Assembly: GCA_030612885.1 (NCBI GenBank)
Contig: JAUWMZ010000002.1
Span: 5,834 to 69,833 of the forward strand
Direction: 5' to 3'
Length of the DNA: 64,000 nucleotides
DNA from: Candidatus Nealsonbacteria bacterium
Lineage (GTDB): Bacteria; Patescibacteriota; Minisyncoccia; Minisyncoccales; JAGMDC01
Shown here: positions 5,079 to 43,659 of the stretch, one piece after another
How the letters are laid out: each line of letters begins with the position of its first letter
Position numbering within the stretch: the stretch's first letter is position 1
Made by a program: the position numbers and the translations under genes
The notes under the pieces: model-generated
The model's input: only the letters and a program-made list of their open reading frames with translations
What the model was told of the DNA's origin: nothing
The model's database searches: none

Positions 5079-5167
5079 AAACTATGGACGTTTATACGTC
5101 CCTTTTTTTATTGTTTTTATTGCCATATTTTTTATTGCCATACCATTTATGTTTTGCTATATTAATA

Positions 5168-5190
5168 TTAACGAGAACATTTCTCGTTAA
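5168..5190. repeat. REP-like perfect palindrome TTAACGAGAACATTTCTCGTTAA (family A), 5' of the RAYT gene
   Basis: Self-complementary 23-mer. The extended consensus AATTTAACGAGAAnnTTCTCGTTAAATT is shared with copies at 5389, 5932 and 42191. Confidence 0.8.
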
Positions 5191-5200
5191 ATTAAAATAT

Positions 5201-5935
5201 ATGTCAATAAAAAGACCCCTATTAATTAATGGTCAGATATATCATATTGTATTACGAGCAGTAGAGGGCTCAAATCTTTTCATTGATGATTATGATTATT
5301 TAAGAATAATTCATGACTTGTTTGAATTTAATGACGAAAATCCCGCTCCATCAAATTTTCGTGTTGCTCAACACTTTAGAGTATCTAATTTAACGAGAAA
5401 TGTTCTCGTTAAATTGGCAGAAAAGAAAGGAAGGGAAAAGAGAAAAATGTTAGTAGAAATTTTAGCTTTTTGTTTGATGCCAAATCACATTCATTTGCTG
5501 GTTCGCCAGCTAAGAGAAGGCGGGATTAGTAAATTTATGAGAAAGATCGGTGCAGGATATGGGCTTTACTATAATCAGAAATATGAAAGAAAAGGTCATC
5601 TATTTGGTGGAAGATACAAAATAGTCCTTATTGAGAATAATGAGCAGCTGAAGACAGTATTTGTTTATATTCATACAAATCCAGTTGCAATTATATTTCC
5701 TCATTGGAAAGAAAAGGGAATTAAAAATTTAAAAAAGGCAATGGAGTTTTTAGAGGCAAAATACAGATGGTCCAGTTATCCAGATTATTTGGGAAATACA
5801 AATTTTTCCTCATTAACCAATCGAGAATTTTTAACGAAAACAATGGAAGGGACAAAAGGCTGTAAAGAGTTTGTTAATGGTTGGTTAAAATATAAAAGGG
5901 AACTCGCTGGTTTCGAAATAGTAGCAATAAATTAA
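5201..5935 (+). CDS. REP-associated tyrosine transposase (RAYT; Y1 HUH transposase, IS200-like / Transposase_17 family)
   Basis: YHIVLRAV ... FCLMPNHIHLLV (HUH motif) ... GHLFGGRYK (catalytic Tyr) ... YIHTNPV ... WSSYPDYLG matches the widespread TnpA_REP family. The ORF-track start at 5084 reads through an upstream REP palindrome, so the ATG at 5201 (MSIKRPLL) is more plausible. The gene is flanked by REP palindromes at 5168 and 5932 and contains one internally. Confidence 0.75.
   Translation: MSIKRPLLINGQIYHIVLRAVEGSNLFIDDYDYLRIIHDLFEFNDENPAPSNFRVAQHFRVSNLTRNVLVKLAEKKGREKRKMLVEILAFCLMPNHIHLLVRQLREGGISKFMRKIGAGYGLYYNQKYERKGHLFGGRYKIVLIENNEQLKTVFVYIHTNPVAIIFPHWKEKGIKNLKKAMEFLEAKYRWSSYPDYLGNTNFSSLTNREFLTKTMEGTKGCKEFVNGWLKYKRELAGFEIVAIN
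5389..5411. repeat. REP-like palindrome TTAACGAGAAATGTTCTCGTTAA inside the RAYT coding sequence
   Basis: Same palindrome family. Translated in frame as NLTRNVLVKL within a variable loop of the transposase. Confidence 0.8.
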
Positions 5936-5954
5936 CGAGAAATGTTCTCGTTAA
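5932..5954. repeat. REP-like palindrome overlapping the RAYT stop codon
   Basis: TTAACGAGAAATGTTCTCGTTAA, with the TAA stop of the RAYT gene inside the left arm. Confidence 0.8.
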
Positions 5955-6124
5955 TTTTTGGATTGGGCGTTAAGATGTGTCCTTTTTTTAATTCTCAATC
6001 CTTGACACAATCTTAAGGGTTTGATAGGAAGAAAATAGAACCTTTTGAATAACATATGAGTTGAATGAAATATAGAGTAAAGGTTTAATAGGATGAAAAA
6101 ATTTAGGAGGTGAAAAAGAAAAAA

Positions 6125-7740: not shown

Positions 7741-8382
7741 ATGAGAAAAACAAAATTTATTGCTTTGGCAATTATTGCATTATCATTTTTGATTGGCATT
7801 TATTTTTACAACATGATGCCAGAGATAATGGCTTCGCATTGGAATGCCCAAGGTGAGGTTGATGGCTATATGACAAAATTTTGGGCTTTGTTTTTGATGC
7901 CCTTAATGTCTTTGGGATTGCTTTTACTTTTTCTGGTGATTCCCAAAATTGATCCCTTAAAACAAAATATTGAAAAATTCAGAAAATACTTTGATATGTT
8001 TATTGTCTTGATGCTTGGTTTTCTGTTTTATGTTTATCTGCTGACTATTTTTTGGAATCTTGGCATTAGATTCAGTATGACGCAACTGATGATTCCAGCT
8101 ATGGCCGCTTTATTCTATTACTGCGGAATTTTAGTGGAAAATGCCAAAAGAAACTGGTTTATTGGAATTAGAACTCCCTGGACATTGAGCAGTGAAAAGG
8201 TCTGGGAGAAAACTCATAAACTGGGCGGTAAGCTATTCAAAGGCGCTGGTCTGATTATTCTTTTGGGATTTGTTTTGGAAAGTTACGCCTTGCTTTTTAT
8301 TTTAGTCCCAGTATTGTTTGTTAGTATTTATCTAATTGTTTATTCATATCTTGAATATCAAAAAGAAGTAAGAAATAATTGA
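7741..8382 (+). CDS. SdpI/YhfL-family (DUF1648) membrane protein
   Basis: N-terminal TM helix, the PEIMASHWNAQGEVDGYMTK motif typical of DUF1648, and 4 TM helices. Confidence 0.5.
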   Translation: MRKTKFIALAIIALSFLIGIYFYNMMPEIMASHWNAQGEVDGYMTKFWALFLMPLMSLGLLLLFLVIPKIDPLKQNIEKFRKYFDMFIVLMLGFLFYVYLLTIFWNLGIRFSMTQLMIPAMAALFYYCGILVENAKRNWFIGIRTPWTLSSEKVWEKTHKLGGKLFKGAGLIILLGFVLESYALLFILVPVLFVSIYLIVYSYLEYQKEVRNN

Positions 8383-8384
8383 AA

Positions 8385-8409
8385 TCAACGAGAACCGTTC
8401 TCGTTGATT
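8385..8409. repeat. REP-like palindrome variant ATCAACGAGAACCGTTCTCGTTGAT
   Basis: Perfect 25-bp palindrome sharing the ACGAGAAC..GTTCTCGT core with family A, located in an intergenic position. Confidence 0.7.
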
Positions 8410-8429
8410 TTTGTTGATTTATAGACATT

Positions 8430-13508: not shown

Positions 13509-14225
13509 ATGCTTATCGGTGGTTTACAAAAAGTTACTTTAATTGATTATCCGGGCAAGGTTGCTTGCACGGTTTTTTTAATGGGCTGTAATTTTCGCTG
13601 TCCTTTTTGTTATAGCGGTGAACTTGTTTTGCCAAAAGAAATAAAAAAACAGCCAAGAATTTCAGAAAAAGTTTTTTTTGATTTTTTAAAAGAAAGGCAA
13701 GGATTATTAGAAGGAGTTGTTCTGTGCGGCGGCGAGCCGACTATTTCTGAAGATTTATTGGAATTCTGCCAGAAAATAAAAAAATTAGGATATTTGGTGA
13801 AATTAGATACTAATGGTTCAAACCCAAAAATGATTGAGAAATTGATAAAAGAAAGATTGATAGATTATGTGGCAATGGATATTAAAGCGCCGCAAAATAA
13901 ATATGGTTTTTGTTCAGGGAATAAAGCAGACATTAAAAATATCAAAAAAAGTGTTGAGTTTTTAAAGCAGGGAAAAATTGACTTTGAATTTAGGACTACG
14001 GTAGCTCCGGGATTAAGTGAATCAGATTTTTTAGAGATAGCTAACTGGATAGGGGTCCCTTCGACAAACTCAGGGCAAGCTCCAAAGTATTTTCTTCAGG
14101 AGTTTAATTCTCAAAAGCCGGTTTTAAATCCAGAAATTCTTAAACTTCCTGTTTTGAAACGAGAAGACATTGAGAAAGCTATTGAAACGATAAAACCAAA
14201 ATTTCAAACCTGCAAATTAAGATAA
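13509..14225 (+). CDS. nrdG: Anaerobic RNR activating protein (radical SAM)
   Basis: GCNFRCPFCY (CxxxCxxC) with the VVLCGGEPT motif, immediately downstream of nrdD. Confidence 0.8.
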   Translation: MLIGGLQKVTLIDYPGKVACTVFLMGCNFRCPFCYSGELVLPKEIKKQPRISEKVFFDFLKERQGLLEGVVLCGGEPTISEDLLEFCQKIKKLGYLVKLDTNGSNPKMIEKLIKERLIDYVAMDIKAPQNKYGFCSGNKADIKNIKKSVEFLKQGKIDFEFRTTVAPGLSESDFLEIANWIGVPSTNSGQAPKYFLQEFNSQKPVLNPEILKLPVLKREDIEKAIETIKPKFQTCKLR

Positions 14226-15718
14226 TGACTGCTTCTAAGATATTGCTTTGTTTTTGTTTATCTTTTATCATAGGAATTTTTTTCCCCGCACCTTTTGAAC
14301 TCAAAAGGTGCGGGGTTGATTTTTCTTTAGTAATATTATTTTTTCTGATTTTGGGAATTTTGTTAATCTCCGTTCCGCCTTTTTCCAAGAGAAGGGGATT
14401 GATAATTCTAGGATTTTGTATTTTATTTTTATCAGCAGGAATTTATCGCCAAGGGATTGCTGAATTAGAAATTACAAACAATGAAATGAAAAAGTATAAT
14501 GATTCAGAACAGAGCATTATTTTAATCGGAGAAGTTGTAAAAGAGCCGGATGTCAGGGATACTAACACAAAATTAACAGTAAGAGTGAAAGAAAGCAAAG
14601 TTTTAATTACTATCAAAAAATATCCTCAATATCAGTATGGAGATAAATTGGAAATTAAAGGAAAATTGGAGAGCCCGGCAGTTTTTGAGGACTTCAATTA
14701 CAAAGATTATTTAGCCAAAGATGGAATTTATTCAGTAATGTATTATCCAGGAATAGAGCTGTTAGAAAGAAAAAATTACACAGGTCTGACCTGTGTAATT
14801 TATAAAGGGATTTTTGGTTTTAAAAATAAATTAAGAGAATCAATTTTTCAAAATCTTTCGCCGCCCCAGTCCTCAATTTTAGGAGCCATAATTCTGGGTG
14901 ATAAAAGGCAGATTTCAGAACAATGGAAAGAGAAATTAAATATTACCGGTACCAGACATATTACCTGCGTATCAGGTATGCATATTATTATTCTGGCTGG
15001 GATTTTAATGTGGCTGGGAATGGCTTTAGGTCTTTGGCGGACTCAGGCGTTTTATTTTGCCATTATTTTTCTTGTTTTATTTATTGTGATGGTCGGCGCT
15101 CCTCCTTCAGCAGTCAGGGCCGGTATTATGGGCGGCCTTTTACTCTTGGCTCAATATTTGGGAAGAATGAATACTTCTTCCAGAGCAATTGTTTTTGTAG
15201 CAGCAGCAATGTTAGCCGCTAATCCCTTACTCCTTAAATCAGATGTCGGTTTCCAATTATCATTTTTAGCTGTTATGGGCATTATTTATTTAATGCCCAT
15301 TTTTCAAAATTGGTTGAAAAAGATTCCTTTAGAATCTCTTAAAAATATTCTTGCTATGACTCTATCGGCCCAGGTTTTTACTTTACCGATTTTAATTTAT
15401 AATTTCGGCTACATGTCTTTGGTTTCATTAATTACTAATATTTTAATTGTGCCATTGGTTCCTTTTATTATGATTTTTGGTTTTGTTTCCGGGTTATTAG
15501 GCATAGTTTGGCAGACCTTGGGCTGGGTTTTTTCCTGGCCTGCTTGGTTTTTGCTGACTTATGTTACGAAAATTATTGATTTCTTTTCTCAATTGCCTTT
15601 TGCCTATTTGACCATAGAAAACATCTCTTGGCTCTGGCTTTTAATCGCTTATTCAATTTTAGCTACCATCACTTGGCACTTAAACGAAAAACAAAAACTA
15701 AAGTTCTTGGAATATTGA
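14225..15718 (+). CDS. comEC: ComEC/Rec2-family DNA internalisation channel protein (DUF4131 plus competence domain; no beta-lactamase domain)
   Basis: Polytopic membrane protein with an OB-fold-like periplasmic segment and the competence-domain motif ITGTRHITCVSGMHIIILAG. Confidence 0.7.
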   Translation: MTASKILLCFCLSFIIGIFFPAPFELKRCGVDFSLVILFFLILGILLISVPPFSKRRGLIILGFCILFLSAGIYRQGIAELEITNNEMKKYNDSEQSIILIGEVVKEPDVRDTNTKLTVRVKESKVLITIKKYPQYQYGDKLEIKGKLESPAVFEDFNYKDYLAKDGIYSVMYYPGIELLERKNYTGLTCVIYKGIFGFKNKLRESIFQNLSPPQSSILGAIILGDKRQISEQWKEKLNITGTRHITCVSGMHIIILAGILMWLGMALGLWRTQAFYFAIIFLVLFIVMVGAPPSAVRAGIMGGLLLLAQYLGRMNTSSRAIVFVAAAMLAANPLLLKSDVGFQLSFLAVMGIIYLMPIFQNWLKKIPLESLKNILAMTLSAQVFTLPILIYNFGYMSLVSLITNILIVPLVPFIMIFGFVSGLLGIVWQTLGWVFSWPAWFLLTYVTKIIDFFSQLPFAYLTIENISWLWLLIAYSILATITWHLNEKQKLKFLEY

Positions 15719-32045: not shown

Positions 32046-32654
32046 ATGTCTGTAAAAGAAAAATGGGTTAAAGAAGGGCTTGAAGACGAAGAAGAATTGA
32101 GAGTGTTAACGACAAGAGGTGTGGGACAAATTATTTTTTTGAACTACGCAGGAGTTTTTGAGATTAGAATGGAGAAGCCAAAATTGGCAGAACGAGTTTA
32201 TCGTTTTGAAAACGGAGAAATAACACCGCATACAGATTTTACTTTAGTTAGAATAGTTAATCTGGGTTTTTCCAGAGAACAGTTACTTACAGTGGCTCAA
32301 AACTATCCGTCTTGGGAATACTGTTTAGAAGGATTAGATCAGCCATACTCTCAAGATACGACTTTGATAGCTTTTGATTTCAAAGACAAAGAGGTTGTTA
32401 CTAATCGCGCAATACGAGGTAGATCCAGATATCATCTCATTGAATCTTGTTTTGATCGCCACTATCTAATCAAAGAAAACATTTTTTTTGACTCTCTCCA
32501 GGAGGCGAAAGAAGGGTGGAAGAGAATCGAAAAATTGGCAGGCACAACAGGTCATATTTTATTTTGCGCTCTCTTAGATGTAAGAGAGAACAAAATTTTA
32601 TCCAGAGCTATTTTTACAACATTGCGAGTGATAACCAAAGAAACTTACTGGTAA
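32046..32654 (+). CDS. Hypothetical 202-aa protein
   Basis: Strong RBS AGGAGGTGAAATAAATG and a clean ORF with no recognisable domain. Confidence 0.5.
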   Translation: MSVKEKWVKEGLEDEEELRVLTTRGVGQIIFLNYAGVFEIRMEKPKLAERVYRFENGEITPHTDFTLVRIVNLGFSREQLLTVAQNYPSWEYCLEGLDQPYSQDTTLIAFDFKDKEVVTNRAIRGRSRYHLIESCFDRHYLIKENIFFDSLQEAKEGWKRIEKLAGTTGHILFCALLDVRENKILSRAIFTTLRVITKETYW

Positions 32655-32742: not shown

Positions 32743-32780
32743 AGCCACCGAGCACTCAATACTTTGAGTGCTCGGTGGCT
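32743..32780. promoter_or_regulatory. Perfect 17-bp inverted repeat AGCCACCGAGCACTCAA-tact-TTGAGTGCTCGGTGGCT (CIRCE-like core)
   Basis: GC-rich perfect palindrome in AT-rich DNA. The core AGCACTC-N8-GAGTGCT resembles the HrcA operator CIRCE (TTAGCACTC-N9-GAGTGCTAA) but with an 8-nt spacer. No T-tract follows on the + strand. Confidence 0.4.
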
Positions 32781-32906: not shown

Positions 32907-33488
32907 ATGGACAGAAAATATATTATCAATATTAGTTTTACTGTTTACAAAGTGACAGAGCTTTTTTCAGAAGAAGAACCATTGAGAGCAGAAATCAGAA
33001 CACGGGTAAATGACATTTTAAATGATTTATTGATTTTTCAAAATAATCAGGAAATAGGTGTTAAAACAAATCTGCTTGGAGAAGAAATAATTGAGAACAT
33101 AAAAGATATTAAAAAATATTTTGAATTAGCGATAATTAAAAATTTAGCAAATCCTGTTAATTTCTTGGTTCTTCAAAGAGAATATGATAAAATAGCTAAA
33201 GCAGTAAAAAAAGAACTGGAAGAAGGTTCTCAATCTTACAAACCCAAACTTCCTAAAATTAAAAGAGAAGAAATTTCTTCCAGACAAAAAGAGATATTAG
33301 ATATTATAAAAGAAAAGGGAAAAGTTCAGGCAGGAGAAATTCAAAATCGTTTTCCAGAAATTAGCAAGAGAACTATTCAAAGAGATTTAGCTTTTTTAGT
33401 AGAACAAGGCCTAATTCAAAGGAAAGGAGAGTTTAGCGAGCAGTTTTACTATGATTCAGGGTATGACAAGGGTATGACAAGGGTATGA
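32907..33488 (+). CDS. Protein with C-terminal DeoR-like winged-helix HTH domain
   Basis: The C-terminal SSRQKEILDIIKEKGKVQAGEIQNRFPEISKRTIQRDLAFLVEQGLIQRKGE matches the HTH_DeoR pattern. The 3' end is encoded by the tandem GGGTATGACAA repeats. Confidence 0.55.
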   Translation: MDRKYIINISFTVYKVTELFSEEEPLRAEIRTRVNDILNDLLIFQNNQEIGVKTNLLGEEIIENIKDIKKYFELAIIKNLANPVNFLVLQREYDKIAKAVKKELEEGSQSYKPKLPKIKREEISSRQKEILDIIKEKGKVQAGEIQNRFPEISKRTIQRDLAFLVEQGLIQRKGEFSEQFYYDSGYDKGMTRV

Positions 33489-39425: not shown

Positions 39426-39466
39426 AAAACCCACCCCAAGTTTGGGGTGGGTTTTGTTTTTATTTT
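39426..39466 (+). terminator. Strong rho-independent terminator after the giant surface-protein gene
   Basis: AAAACCCACCCCA-agtt-TGGGGTGGGTTTT 13-bp stem followed by GTTTTTATTTT. Confidence 0.75.
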
Positions 39467-39511: not shown

Positions 39512-40186
39512 ATGAAAAGATATCAAAATATCATTATTTTTATTTTAGTAATAGTTATTATTGGAGCCGGATTTTTTGTTTATAAACAGAAAACTGAATT
39601 AAATCCAGAGTTAGAAGAACTTTTTTCTTTGTCTGAAGAAATAACCCTTACTGAAGAGCAGCAAAATAAATTTGATGAAGCAAGAAACAGTTTAAAAGAA
39701 AACCCTGATGATGCTTTAGCTATTATTGCTATTGCCAGAATAAAACATCAAGCACAGGATTTAAATGGTTCAGAGAGGGCTTATTTAATGGCGTTAGAAA
39801 TCCAGCCGACTAACACAATAATTCTTAATAATTTAGGAGATATTTATAATCAGAAAAAGAAATACGAAAAAGCAGCTGAAATGTATTTACGGCTTATTGA
39901 AAATAATCCTAAATGGGTGAACGCTTACAGGGAATTAGCAGCTATCTATAAATATCACTTGAAGGATAGATACCCGGAAATGGAGGAAATTTTATTACAG
40001 GGTTTAGAAAAGAGTAAAGAATTTACTGGAGAAGCACCAGTAGATTTTTACTCAATGTTAGCTGTTTTTTACAAAGAAACAGGGCAAATAGAAAAAGCAA
40101 TTGAATATTTTGAAAAAGTAATAGAATCAACTCCAGAAAATGAAGGAGCAAAAATAGAATTAGAAGAACTCAAAAAATTATTATGA
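39512..40186 (+). CDS. Membrane-anchored TPR-repeat protein
   Basis: N-terminal TM followed by TPR-like helical repeats (AYLMALEIQP, LNNLGDIYNQKKKYEKAAEMY). Confidence 0.6.
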   Translation: MKRYQNIIIFILVIVIIGAGFFVYKQKTELNPELEELFSLSEEITLTEEQQNKFDEARNSLKENPDDALAIIAIARIKHQAQDLNGSERAYLMALEIQPTNTIILNNLGDIYNQKKKYEKAAEMYLRLIENNPKWVNAYRELAAIYKYHLKDRYPEMEEILLQGLEKSKEFTGEAPVDFYSMLAVFYKETGQIEKAIEYFEKVIESTPENEGAKIELEELKKLL

Positions 40187-41265
40187 AAAAGATTTTAATT
40201 ATTTCTATCATTTTTATTTTATGCGGAAGCGGCTTGGCTCAAGCCTTGGTTTTAGATGATTTTGTGAACAATCAAGCTCCCAGTGCTTATTTTTATCCCC
40301 AAGAGTTTGATAAATTAGTAATGGATTTGACTATTTCTTCAGTGATAGATGGAACAGACAAACTTTCAGCCATCACTATAAAAAATACTGGGACAACTAA
40401 AAACAGAGATGATATTGAAAAGTTTAAACTTTGGAAAGATGCTGATGAGCCAGGTTTTCAGGGAATGGGAAAAGATAAAGAATTAGGCACTTTTACTTAT
40501 TATGCTTCAGATATAAGTTGGTATTTATCAGGTCTTGAAGAATCAGTCCCGGCAGAAGGTTTGAGAATTTTCATCAGCGCTGAGATTGCCAAAAACCCTA
40601 CCAGTAATCGCTCCCTTCAAATACAAATACCTTCTTTGTCTGATAAGAACAATAATGGAATTTTTGATTTGGGAGATTTAGGTATTTTTATGGAATCAAA
40701 AAACAATGGTCTTATTGATGAAGCCATTGTTAATTCCTATTCTCAAACAATCCGCGATTTTGTTATTGATAATCTTGCTCCAAAAACAGTTATTACTGAT
40801 CCAGAAGATAATTCAATAATTACTACTGAAAGCTACTTTATTAAAGGCGTATCCCGAGACCAAGGTGGTTCAACCCCTTCTTGGGTAAAGATTTCTATAA
40901 ACGATGGCGATTGGCAAGAAGTGGAAGCAATTGGCTCCAATTATTCTACTTGGCAGTATCTCTGGCAGAATTATACAGAAGGTGTTTTTACAATAAAAAC
41001 TCAATCAGAGGATTGGATAGGCAATAGAGAAACAATAGGCGATGAAATTACAGTAAGTGTTGATTTTCCAGAGGAACCGGGTGAAGAAGAAGAGCCAGAG
41101 GAAGAAGCTGAAGAAGAAATTATTGAAGAAGAAGTAACAGAGGAGGAAAAGCTAATTTCAGAAATGACAGAACAAGAACTTAAAGCGAAAATTATTGAAG
41201 TTCAGCAAAAAATTATTGAGCTTTTAAAACAGTTAATTCAACTTATTCAGTCAGAATTAATCTGA
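40183..41265 (+). CDS. Secreted protein with Ig-like beta domains and an acidic, coiled-coil C-terminus
   Basis: Signal peptide MKKILIISIIFILCGSGLAQA, a poly-E tract and a terminal coiled coil. Confidence 0.55.
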   Translation: MKKILIISIIFILCGSGLAQALVLDDFVNNQAPSAYFYPQEFDKLVMDLTISSVIDGTDKLSAITIKNTGTTKNRDDIEKFKLWKDADEPGFQGMGKDKELGTFTYYASDISWYLSGLEESVPAEGLRIFISAEIAKNPTSNRSLQIQIPSLSDKNNNGIFDLGDLGIFMESKNNGLIDEAIVNSYSQTIRDFVIDNLAPKTVITDPEDNSIITTESYFIKGVSRDQGGSTPSWVKISINDGDWQEVEAIGSNYSTWQYLWQNYTEGVFTIKTQSEDWIGNRETIGDEITVSVDFPEEPGEEEEPEEEAEEEIIEEEVTEEEKLISEMTEQELKAKIIEVQQKIIELLKQLIQLIQSELI

Positions 41266-43659
41266 TAAAGGTTCAAAACCCATCTCCTTTAAGAACTCAT
41301 TTATAGATGTTCTATATTCTGGATAGAATCGAGATATTTCCATAGCTTCTTTTTTCGCTTTTTCAAAATCACCTAATTCTTTATAGCAAGCAGCTAAATT
41401 AATACGGTATTGGACATTATTCATATTTATTTCTTTTAATTTGTAGTTGATATCACATATTGCCGGATAATCTCCAATACTTAAATAAACCTTGCGAAGC
41501 TCTAAAAGAGAATTTTCAGAATGTACGGGGTAGTTTTTTTGCTCAGCGATATTAATATTTTCCTGGGCTTTTTCAGTTTCATTTGAGTAAATATTGATTA
41601 AAGCTAAAATCCACCAGCATTCGCCTAATTCTGGATTTAAATTAATACATTTTTGAGCTTTTTCCTCGGCTCCTTTATAATCAGCAATCCAAAGATAAGT
41701 TTTTGCCCAGCTAATAAATATTTCTTGACGTTTTGGGCTTAGCTGCTCAGCTTGCTCAAAACATTTATTGGCTTGGTTTTTCCATTCTTCAACAAGTTCC
41801 GGATAAGCATTTTGATAATTTTCAAGCAAGATATTATAATAAGCTCCAAGAATAAGCCAATATCTTGTATAGCTTGGCCTTATTTCTATACTCTCTTTGA
41901 GAATTTCAATTCCTCTAGGCGCTAATCTAATGGTTTTTAAGGGTTCTCTTTGGATATAGGTATTAATGATATTGATATAATTTGCCCTTATATAATCATC
42001 CAAGAAAGTATGAACAGGCAGGATGTTTTCCATTCGCTTTACAGCGTCTTCGCATTGTCCTCTATTGGCGTTGTAGACAGCAACATTGCTCTCTTTGTTA
42101 ATTTGGAAAGGTTTAATATTATAAGCCCAGATAAACCAGATAAGCCCAATAAAGAGCAGGGGAACGATTATATTTCTATATTTATACAATTTAACGAGAA
42201 CATTTCTCGTTAAATTTAAATTGTATTCAATTTTATTCGTGGAATTCGCATTATATATTATGTGTAAAGAATAAGCAATTAATAAGAAAGAGATTAAATA
42301 AGTTGAAAATATATCAAAGCTGAAAAAATTAGCAGTAAGATAAGCTAAAAAAGTGGCTTGGAGTCCGTGGCAAATTAGAATTTGTTCAGGCCGCTTTTTT
42401 TTAATTTTCTGCAGTCCCCAAAATAAAACAGCAAAAAGCAAGAGATAAATTATTAAAGCCAGAATACCGGAGCTAACTCCTATATCAAATAAAAAGCTAT
42501 GTGCTCTGTCATACCAGGTTACAGGGATTGGTTCAGCAAGCATACTCATTCTGGCTAAAGATGGATCGTAATGTTTATCAAAAGCAATGGAGAAATTTTC
42601 TGGTCCGTAGCCAAGAATTGGTCTTTCTATTAACCCTTTTGAAGATATTTTCCAGACAGAAAATCGCGGGTCATCTAAAAATAAGCTAATTGAGAGCCGG
42701 GGTTTTAATTCTTGAAAAAGTTGATTTTCTTGAATAAATTGAGGAAGCTTTCCAGAAGTAGTGTTTATACAATAAATTCCATAAGCGCCGAGGATTAGAA
42801 GAATCCCGAAAAGCGCTTTTAACCAAACTATTTTTTTAGGATGGTGGTTCAACACGTTAAGTAATCTTCCATTTGGCGGAATTACTGCAGAGGTGTATTT
42901 GACAGGATAAAAAAAGAAAAAATAAGAAAAACCAATTATTAAACCGAGATAGGCAGCCCTGGCTCCGGTAATCAAGATTATAAAAAGAAACAATAAGAGA
43001 AAGGAGAAGTAAAAAAACTTTTTTTTAGTTTTTTGTTGTAGACCAAAAGCTAAAGTCAAAAAACTTAGAAGCAAAAGATAAATTGCTAAAAAGCTTGAGC
43101 CGCCGATGGTTGACCAAGGACTACCGGTTGTAACAAAGATATGACTAAGGATTTTAAGGTGCTGAAAAATAGCGATAATTGAGACAAAAATTCCAATAAT
43201 TATACTAAAATTCCAGATTTTTTGCCAGTCAGATTTTCGGAGAATTAAAAAGGCTAAAATAGCAAAGATTATGTAGAAAGCGAAATTAAGAAATCCGCCG
43301 GAACGGTAAGGAGAACCCCAAAAACTGAAAGCAGGGTTTTGGGAAAGCAGGGTAGCCAAAAAGTGAACTCCCAAAAGAGCCACTAAAAGCCAGAAAGCCA
43401 AGAAAACTTTACTTTGCTTATTTAATATATTTTTAATAATCAATGATAAATTATCATTTAATCTTTGGAAGAGAATTTGCCATAGAAAGACAAAAATTAT
43501 TAGAGATAAAATAATCCTAAAGACAATGGTTTTCCCCCAGTCAGGCGGCGAGAACCAAGGAGGCAAATTCCAAAGAGGCAGAGTCAAAATTAAAAAAAAT
43601 CCGATTAAGTAAATCCATTTAAATTTATTTTCAGAAAAAATTGCTTTATTATTTTCCAT
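41257..43659 (-). CDS. O-antigen ligase (Wzy_C)-domain polytopic membrane protein with C-terminal TPR repeats
   Basis: About 12 TM helices with the GARAAYLGLIIG Wzy_C-type motif, and C-terminal TPR repeats (cf. PglL/WaaL-like proteins fused to TPR). Contains an in-frame REP palindrome at 42191..42213. Confidence 0.65.
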   Translation of the reverse strand: MENNKAIFSENKFKWIYLIGFFLILTLPLWNLPPWFSPPDWGKTIVFRIILSLIIFVFLWQILFQRLNDNLSLIIKNILNKQSKVFLAFWLLVALLGVHFLATLLSQNPAFSFWGSPYRSGGFLNFAFYIIFAILAFLILRKSDWQKIWNFSIIIGIFVSIIAIFQHLKILSHIFVTTGSPWSTIGGSSFLAIYLLLLSFLTLAFGLQQKTKKKFFYFSFLLLFLFIILITGARAAYLGLIIGFSYFFFFYPVKYTSAVIPPNGRLLNVLNHHPKKIVWLKALFGILLILGAYGIYCINTTSGKLPQFIQENQLFQELKPRLSISLFLDDPRFSVWKISSKGLIERPILGYGPENFSIAFDKHYDPSLARMSMLAEPIPVTWYDRAHSFLFDIGVSSGILALIIYLLLFAVLFWGLQKIKKKRPEQILICHGLQATFLAYLTANFFSFDIFSTYLISFLLIAYSLHIIYNANSTNKIEYNLNLTRNVLVKLYKYRNIIVPLLFIGLIWFIWAYNIKPFQINKESNVAVYNANRGQCEDAVKRMENILPVHTFLDDYIRANYINIINTYIQREPLKTIRLAPRGIEILKESIEIRPSYTRYWLILGAYYNILLENYQNAYPELVEEWKNQANKCFEQAEQLSPKRQEIFISWAKTYLWIADYKGAEEKAQKCINLNPELGECWWILALINIYSNETEKAQENINIAEQKNYPVHSENSLLELRKVYLSIGDYPAICDINYKLKEINMNNVQYRINLAACYKELGDFEKAKKEAMEISRFYPEYRTSINEFLKEMGFEPLSD
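42191..42213. repeat. REP family A palindrome TTAACGAGAACATTTCTCGTTAA inserted in frame inside the Wzy/TPR gene
   Basis: Identical to the 5168 copy including the AATT..AAATT flanks. Translated as NLTRNVLVKL in the linker between the Wzy and TPR domains. Confidence 0.8.

Follow-up and report, generated by a model that had tools for sequence, protein, structure and literature searches.

The closest described counterparts of the system examined here are the REP/RAYT systems, or REPtrons, in which repetitive extragenic palindromes (REPs) accompany a REP-associated tyrosine transposase (RAYT), as with TnpA_REP of Escherichia coli and its REP hairpins (PDB 4ER8; Nunvar 2010, PMC2817692; Bertels 2017, PMC5581495; Quentin 2018, PMC6006769). 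We analyzed a stretch of 64,000 nucleotides, hereafter the window, from a Candidatus Nealsonbacteria genome of the Patescibacteria, Parcubacteria-type (GenBank assembly GCA_030612885.1, contig JAUWMZ010000002.1, positions 5,834 to 69,833 of the forward strand). It contains a gene for a RAYT-like transposase of the Y1/HUH type and several copies of a 29-nt REP-type hairpin, one of them in frame inside the transposase gene itself and one in frame inside the gene for an unrelated membrane protein with Wzy_C and TPR domains. We favor, with a probability of about 0.65, the reading that these are parts of a low-copy REP/RAYT system in which hairpin copies evolve in concert and persist in permissive coding slots.

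As in described REPtrons, the transposase gene lies between cognate hairpin repeats, solitary copies occur elsewhere, often right after stop codons, the hairpin sequence diverges together with the transposase, and the locus appears stable. The differences are that the clade is patescibacterial, that the 244-aa protein falls below the NCBIfam cutoff for RAYTs, and that there is no unpaired GTAG foot, relatives instead having CTAC...GTAG inside the stem. Classical REPs number in the hundreds of copies, whereas copy number here is very low.

By its motifs NHIH, FQ, and YIHTNP and its SS C-terminal tail, the transposase resembles subclass 2.1 (Bertels group 1), for which the table of Quentin 2018 lists no REPs (PMC6006769) and for which few flanking repeats are reported (PMC5581495). 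In-frame REPs inside tnpA_REP genes have been described for subclass 2.4, equivalent to RAYT group 4 (Quentin et al. 2018, PMC6006769); there as here, the REP lies within the RAYT gene, leaves the frame unbroken, and falls in a peripheral region of the protein. Here, however, the hairpin encodes residues 63-72 and so precedes the HuH motif (96-98), is constant in position and size throughout a deep clade, agrees with the flanking copies, and occurs in all three frames, and YIHTNP and the SS tail are closer to subclass 2.1.

In-frame intragenic REPs of the GTAG/CGTC type occur in many bacteria (Di Nocera et al. 2013, PMC3733652), and RPE-1, a Rickettsia palindromic element (RPE), is a longer palindromic insertion (PMC3733652, its refs 13, 14). 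In both, as in the present element, functional genes contain palindromes that are read in frame as protein, and related species sometimes have them at one and the same site. An earlier note on this DNA, made by a model from the letters, had drawn the likeness to RPEs, and aptly. MltG and MurC genes in metagenomes also carry the same REP in frame. RPEs measure roughly 100-150 bp, and we know of no transposase for them; here, a hairpin of 29 nt has a cognate RAYT gene beside three of its copies and occupies largely length-neutral slots with lineage-specific variants. The transposases of IS200/IS605-type insertion sequences (ISs), such as TnpA of IS608 and ISDra2, have the same fold, recognize subterminal hairpins as single-stranded DNA, and likewise leave no target-site duplication. 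The present system differs from them in having no identical multicopy elements, a protein about 90 aa longer, solitary hairpins far from the gene, and a score to the IS200 hidden Markov model (HMM) far below cutoff.

In-frame REPs, including REPs inside RAYT genes, are therefore already known. What seems new is the clade, the constant place of the hairpin before HuH, the reading in three frames, the match between internal and flanking copies, and the shared, length-neutral slots in housekeeping genes that hold lineage-specific variants. Work on REP/RAYT systems has dealt almost exclusively with Proteobacteria and Cyanobacteria, and a literature search for RAYTs or REPs in Patescibacteria or the Candidate Phyla Radiation (CPR) found no paper. 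In these tiny, gene-dense genomes, hairpins appear to survive inside reading frames, and lineage-specific hairpins at the same gene sites offer a natural experiment on how short mobile hairpins are kept uniform, how RAYTs act on REPs, and how non-coding repeats become protein. They matter also for annotation and for CPR protein phylogenetics, because protein segments encoded by palindromes lack homology of the ordinary kind.

The hairpin and its transposase

In its perfect form the hairpin is 29 nt long (13+3+13), a 13-bp stem with a 3-nt loop. A search of the whole window with TTTAACGAGAA-NNN-TTCTCGTTAAA, allowing up to 3 mismatches, found four copies against an expectation of 0.00 from 100 shuffles, and a shorter core recovered a fifth at 8387. 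The two intragenic copies, both AATTTAACGAGAA-ATG-TTCTCGTTAAATT, lie at 5387-5415 on the plus strand in the RAYT gene and at 42188-42216 on the minus strand in the Wzy_C/TPR gene, the two places where the earlier note had put a palindrome. They are identical over exactly 30 nt, AAT TTA ACG AGA AAT GTT CTC GTT AAA TTG, or ten codons. As that note had read them, both open reading frames (ORFs) run through the hairpin uninterrupted with the same peptide, NLTRNVLVKL, which forms residues 63-72 of the transposase and residues 482-491 of the membrane protein. Its description of a minimal REP-type hairpin also stands, and the hairpin can be tied to the adjacent Y1/HUH transposase. Its statement that the element is its own reverse complement does not stand, because the loop, ATG on one strand, reads CAT on its complement; nor would both orientations encode the same peptide, translation of the two strands giving NLTRTFLVK for the reverse, a difference of two residues. 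The sense-strand loop is ATG in both intragenic copies, so their orientation is the same. Frames 1 and 2 of the window hairpin contain TAA in either orientation, and a copy surviving in a gene must therefore use the single stop-free frame, which forces the peptide.

The remaining three copies, two flanking the RAYT gene and one intergenic variant, had been overlooked. The 5' flanking copy, ATTAACGAGAA-CAT-TTCTCGTTAAA at 5167-5191, ends 9 nt before the RAYT ATG, folds as RNA at -9.9 kcal/mol, and has its loop inverted relative to the other two copies at the locus. The 3' flanking copy, AAATTAACGAGAA-ATG-TTCTCGTTAATTT at 5929-5957, takes in the TAA at 5933-5935 that ends the RAYT gene, and TTTTT follows it. 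The intergenic variant, AAATCAACGAGAAC-C-GTTCTCGTTGATTT at 8382-8410 (RNA -16.1 kcal/mol), begins at the stop codon of the ORF at 7741-8382 and, with a T-run after it, looks like a terminator. Across the window hairpins, RNA folding gave -9.9 to -16.1 kcal/mol with z-scores of -5.7 to -9.1; for the full perfect hairpin the values were -13 to -16 kcal/mol and -7 to -9. A search of the whole window at Rfam gathering thresholds matched no family.

The RAYT-like gene, the only one in the window, spans 5201-5935 on the plus strand, with its true ATG at 5201, and encodes a 244-aa Y1/HUH tyrosine transposase (Pfam Y1_Tnp, E = 2.6e-12) whose HUH motif is NHIHLL and whose catalytic tyrosine lies in YIHTNP. 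H96, H98, and Y156 are invariant in an alignment of 25 homologs, and given these conserved catalytic residues the protein is presumably active. By sequence it is a member of a clade distant from the NCBIfam RAYT model rather than an equivalog. The best Foldseek match of its AlphaFold model, which has a modest mean predicted local distance difference test score (pLDDT) of 54, is 4er8_A, the E. coli RAYT with REP hairpin (E = 3.6e-5), followed by the IS608, ISDra2, and IS200 transposases; a profile of RAYT homologs matched no PDB sequence, so the link to 4ER8 comes from the fold search alone. The model places residues 49-78, a loop with pLDDT below 50, between helix 32-42 (alpha1) and the HUH strand at 85-92. 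That this loop is long, as the earlier note held, is true relative to the canonical Y1_Tnp domain but not relative to near relatives: the closest 120 homologs, all from Patescibacteria at 60-91% identity, are 232-255 aa in length and align from end to end.

Hairpins within related RAYT genes

We took 78 related RAYT loci from GTDB genomes at the DNA level, of which 72 have the FEFN...HUH landmarks. A strong hairpin occurs in the same protein loop in 52 of these 72 patescibacterial loci. Although the FEFN-to-HUH segment makes up 19% of the gene, its best hairpin has a median score of 10, versus 6 in the remaining 81%, and is the best of the whole gene in 53 of the 72 loci; scores of at least 10 were reached by 38 loop segments but by only 3 remainders. 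RAYT homologs down to 45% identity have the hairpin at the same place while gene length stays constant. For the RAYT gene, this clade-wide conservation refutes the explanation in which recent transposition, in the manner of RPEs, added about 10 codons cleanly and in frame to both genes and nothing has maintained the REP since.

The stems themselves differ between loci (types CGAGAAC, GGGGTC, GAAGTC, GAGGCC, and others). In an alignment of the 52 hairpins anchored on the loop center, 90% of cells are paired, as against 58% in shuffles and 36-44% with the partner slid, the first figure being inflated by selection bias since each row is the best hairpin of its locus; the comparison of loop segment with rest of gene is free of that bias. 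All 13 pairs show changes on both sides, whereas the outer AAT...ATT pairs and the overall size of the hairpin are conserved. At the protein level, a segment N-x-T-R-x-V-L-x-x-L holds a fixed position in the alignment of homologs, and its residues vary together as complementary codons require, in pairs T/V, P/G, A/A, L/K, and V/T. The hairpin is read in frames 0, 1, and 2 at 17, 19, and 16 loci, respectively, such that the core TACGAGAAC..GTTCTCGTA appears as TRTVLV in some loci and as YENSSRS in others. Because all three frames are used and the resulting peptides are unrelated, maintenance acts on the nucleic acid and not on the peptide. This contradicts the alternative in which the peptide N-x-T-R-x-V-L-V-x-L is selected as protein and the DNA palindrome is incidental. 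Residue R66 is nearly invariant in the 25 closest RAYT homologs, and the REP peptide of MltG resembles the native KLKKADVLKTM of Listeria. Set against the three-frame use of one core, the codon-like covariation, the low confidence of this segment in the structure model, and the identity of the 30 nt in two unrelated proteins, these observations leave selection on the peptide with almost no probability.

The internal hairpin generally has company. The same core is found upstream of it in 35 of the 52 loci, at a median of 222 nt before the internal copy, and downstream in 32, at a median of 542 nt after it, where the copies sit 4-20 nt past the RAYT stop; in 27 of the 52, both flanking copies match the internal one. 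Relative to the internal copy, the loop of the 5' copy is inverted in 22 cases and the same in 13, while that of the 3' copy is the same in 21 and inverted in 7. A relative at 91% identity, likewise adjoining DHO_dh, has a T-to-C change in the right arm of both its internal and its 3' copies, where the window has T in both, a short-term case of concerted change.

The order of elements at the locus (promoter-like site, hairpin, ATG, internal hairpin, 3' hairpin with T-run) suggests that the hairpins could be cis-regulatory structures under selection, serving RAYT autoregulation, in which the enzyme would bind the hairpins before, within, and after its own gene or mRNA, or, as RNA, tuning translation or mRNA decay of the envelope genes Wzy, MltG, and MurC. 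The promoter-like site at 5135-5163 on the plus strand (TTGCCA, 17 nt, TG-TATATT; 10 of 12 consensus positions matched) lies immediately 5' of the 5' REP copy, between which and the ATG no more than 9 nt intervene, but it is a consensus match only, such sites being about as frequent in the region as in its shuffles. A transcript initiated there would begin at the 5' hairpin, and the three hairpins of the RAYT transcript could plausibly serve in regulation. Conserved position and size, retention of the outer AAT...ATT pairs, independence from reading frame, the stability of the RNA hairpins, and the conserved catalytic residues of a presumably active protein all agree with regulation. Yet 20 of the 72 RAYT loci have no clear internal hairpin, and many MltG and Wzy orthologs have none or a decayed one, so the hairpins look dispensable; moreover, templated homogenization would yield the same covariation without selection. 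We hold regulation as a primary explanation to be doubtful, although it can coexist with a concertedly evolving REP/RAYT system.

A further alternative is an active IS200/IS605-type IS whose left and right ends are the flanking hairpins and whose internal copy is a pseudo-end. The Y1 fold of the transposase, hairpins near both ends of the gene, and at least five RAYT paralogs (L016, L019, L020, L024, L036) in one Nealsonbacteria metagenome-assembled genome (MAG), JACPGX01, would all fit. The paralogs, however, are diverged rather than identical, and three of them have distinct cognate hairpins, TACGAGAAC, GTCGAGAAC, and GACGAGAAC, one stem pair apart. Diverged paralogs each with its own hairpin variant are, judged from these sequences, the pattern of REP/RAYT units and not of a recently active IS, and REP/RAYT specificity may be diversifying within this one genome. 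In addition, the locus still stands beside DHO_dh in the 91%-identical relative, solitary hairpins occur far from any transposase gene, and the NCBIfam model transpos_IS200 scores only 17.8 bits, under its cutoff of 55, versus 45.9 for the RAYT model. An active IS is accordingly a very improbable description of the locus.

Coding slots and maintenance of the hairpins

The Wzy_C/TPR gene (41257-43659, minus strand) encodes an 800-aa membrane protein with an O-antigen-ligase-like Wzy_C domain followed by C-terminal TPR repeats, and hundreds of full-length homologs exist. A syntenic ortholog is present in L080/L081. The REP lies 2-3 codons before a K/R-Y-K/R motif and the next transmembrane helix, within a hypervariable linker between that helix and the last Wzy transmembrane block. 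The nearest orthologs are 57% identical, and in those at 53-58% identity the very same codon position holds either a REP variant peculiar to the ortholog or what is left of a decayed one. Where the window has its perfect hairpin, L079 has AAT TTT CCG AGA ACT GTT CTC GGA AAA TTG, with a perfect 14-bp stem; L091 has AAA ATG CCG GGA ACA TTT CTC GGC AAG TTG, with one G-T mismatch and the opposite loop orientation; and L093 has a 6-bp remnant. In seven of eight orthologs the linker measures 48-52 aa, with or without a perfect hairpin.

Assembly artefact was considered as a source of the Wzy copy. It is unlikely because an identical Wzy protein occurs in an independent ENA assembly (P0001), and it was rejected because other assemblies and samples, obtained independently, contain these proteins and REPs too.

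Other palindromes occupy or surround the same linker. Two orthologs have large ones unrelated to the REP: in L092, nt 1415-1456 of the gene form a perfect 20-bp GC-rich stem, AGAGACCCGCTCTCTGCCAA tt TTGGCAGAGAGCGGGTCTCT, and L080 has a nested palindrome, TTAGAAGTGTCCAAA...CACGATCGTG...TTTGGACACTTTTAA. The Wzy linker appears, from these sequences, to be a repeatedly used site. In the window itself, weaker complementarity surrounds the REP at 42164-42240, with 37-nt arms at 70%, including an offset perfect 11-nt pair, ATACAATTTAA/TTAAATTGTAT, and an AATTTA-AATTTA tandem at the left edge; in DNA this rich in AT it could be fortuitous, or else it may have been left by a palindrome that was older or larger.

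Scanning metagenome contigs for exact matches to the REP pattern gave 9 loci. The REP is in frame in three metagenome genes, encoding YceG/MltG (in three samples), a MurC-type Mur ligase, and an unassigned ORF; neither the L088 ORF, through which the REP is read in frame, nor the L084 ORF matches Pfam, and that of L088 may not be a gene. MltG orthologs at 61-72% identity show several REP variants in one alignment column, with peptides NLTRNVLVNI (window type), NLTRTFLINI (opposite loop orientation), NVTKSFLVTL, LQRPVLCQF, and others. Their DNA shows hairpins of window, L012, and L052 type in either loop orientation, some with one mismatch. Many MltG orthologs, as many Wzy orthologs, lack the hairpin or have it in decayed form. 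A tblastn search for MltG, MurC, and Wzy in the fetched RAYT loci found no co-occurrence.

In two higher-GC metagenome contigs (L089, 843-905; L090, 9738-9774; 40% and 48% GC), a perfect palindrome far exceeding the REP in length has the REP core at its center; in L089 its arms measure about 30 nt. Both palindromes lie outside ORFs.

Solved homologs show which native residues the REP-encoded ones align with. In MurC (L083, 459-1850), LTRNVLVKI aligns to SAENIIPGI of the solved MurC 9IR5 with a one-residue gap. In MltG (P0241), KLTRSVLVNF aligns to KLKKADVLKTM of Listeria 4IIW, the REP-bearing protein being one residue shorter. Length thus differs by no more than 1-2 residues between REP-encoded and native segments in these two proteins, and from the alignments the REP there seems to have taken the place of native codons instead of adding to them.

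For the earlier note, the palindrome was inserted into two genes, and a clean indel of about 10 codons and a target-site duplication in the flanks were to be looked for. That real genes are read through the hairpin in frame holds; that each of the two received a simple, lineage-specific insert of about 10 codons is not supported, given a clade-wide position in RAYT and different variants at one Wzy codon. MltG and MurC show no clean indel, and no target-site duplication is visible, the Wzy copy having only the one-sided AATTTA AATTTA tandem. Recent insertion would account well for the identity of the two intragenic copies over exactly ten codons, Wzy orthologs of a more distant subclade lack 10-17 residues here, and the unrelated palindromes of L080 and L092 mark the linker as permissive and repeatedly hit. 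Against it, besides the conserved RAYT position, stand the different REP variants at the same codon in three Wzy orthologs, a Wzy linker of equal length with or without the REP, the alignment of REP-encoded to native residues in MurC and MltG, and the missing target-site duplication. Together these make recent insertion unlikely.

We favor instead the REP/RAYT system with concerted evolution, which would operate as follows. The 29-nt hairpin would belong to the adjacent RAYT-like transposase, and its copies would persist directly before and after that gene, where they have the look of a 5'-end hairpin and a terminator, as well as at other gene ends and, in frame, in a few permissive, poorly structured segments, namely the RAYT loop between alpha1 and HUH and the Wzy linker before a transmembrane helix. 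The intragenic copies would be old slots, common to orthologs of other lineages, each lineage holding its own REP variant, such that copies are kept alike within a genome and diverge between genomes, as expected of concerted evolution. The encoded peptide would be a passenger, the sole stop-free reading of the hairpin. The likely and most economical cause is templated replacement, either through RAYT action on recognized hairpins or through gene conversion, an idea for REPs that reportedly goes back to Higgins et al. 1988 (in the reference list of PMC3337134). Template-switching within quasi-palindromes during replication could in addition restore arm complementarity. Anatomy, clade-wide conservation, covariation, frame independence, and length neutrality are direct observations; the action of the RAYT on hairpins and the way of homogenization we infer.

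A more specific form of RAYT action can be imagined, in which the enzyme performs length-neutral exchange of hairpin cassettes, cutting at the conserved AAT...ATT feet on both sides and swapping in another REP, so that every recognized slot, native pseudo-sites included, is overwritten. Under such exchange, REPs would evolve in concert genome-wide, the essential envelope genes MltG, MurC, and Wzy would gain coding palindromes without change in length, and the RAYT-internal copy would serve as a protected master or an auto-regulatory copy. We regard cassette exchange as a tentative possibility.

Several observations weigh against a concertedly evolving REP/RAYT system. Maintenance is imperfect: the hairpin is not clear in the 20 RAYT loci already mentioned, and several slot copies have one mismatch. 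The covariation is read from best hairpins, with the bias noted above. Dispersed cognate copies are few, 2 in the 64-kb window and 14 in 767 kb of related loci. The window REP lacks the GTAG foot, having TTAAC...GTTAA. The score of 45.9 bits to NCBIfam REP_Tyr_transpos falls under the cutoff of 80, and binding or cleavage of the hairpins by this RAYT is predicted from homology alone. The window alone offers a slot copy together with a RAYT copy of the same genome, and concerted evolution at distant slots elsewhere is suggested by REP types in different MAGs. Related loci do have CTAC...GTAG or TTAC...GTAA within the stem, in both arms. Throughout the 78 genome loci, dispersed copies are mostly intergenic or 5' of the true start rather than in frame in genes, and coding slots are therefore the exception.

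Other palindromes in the window

The ComEC/Rec2 gene (14225-15718, plus strand) contains two in-frame perfect palindromes unrelated to the REP. One, at 14284-14315, has a 15-bp GC-rich stem, CCCCGCACCTTTTGA/TCAAAAGGTGCGGGG, and encodes aa 20-30; the other, at 14773-14801, has a 14-bp stem, AAATTACACAGGTC/GACCTGTGTAATTT, and encodes aa 183-192. Both fall outside the Pfam matches of the protein (DUF4131 at 35-179, Competence at 222-486). Other RAYTs encoded elsewhere in the genome may have these palindromes as their REPs; a search for the two in all fetched loci found no match.

Two further hairpins lie between genes. A perfect 17-bp GC-rich palindrome, AGCCACCGAGCACTCAA tact TTGAGTGCTCGGTGGCT, at 32743-32780 between the ORFs at 32046-32654 and 32907-33488, occurs once in the window. 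The other, a perfect 14-bp hairpin, AAAACCCACCCCAA gt TTGGGGTGGGTTTT, at 39426-39455, stands just 5' of an ATG at 39512 and, from its sequence and place, looks like the intrinsic terminator of the preceding gene.

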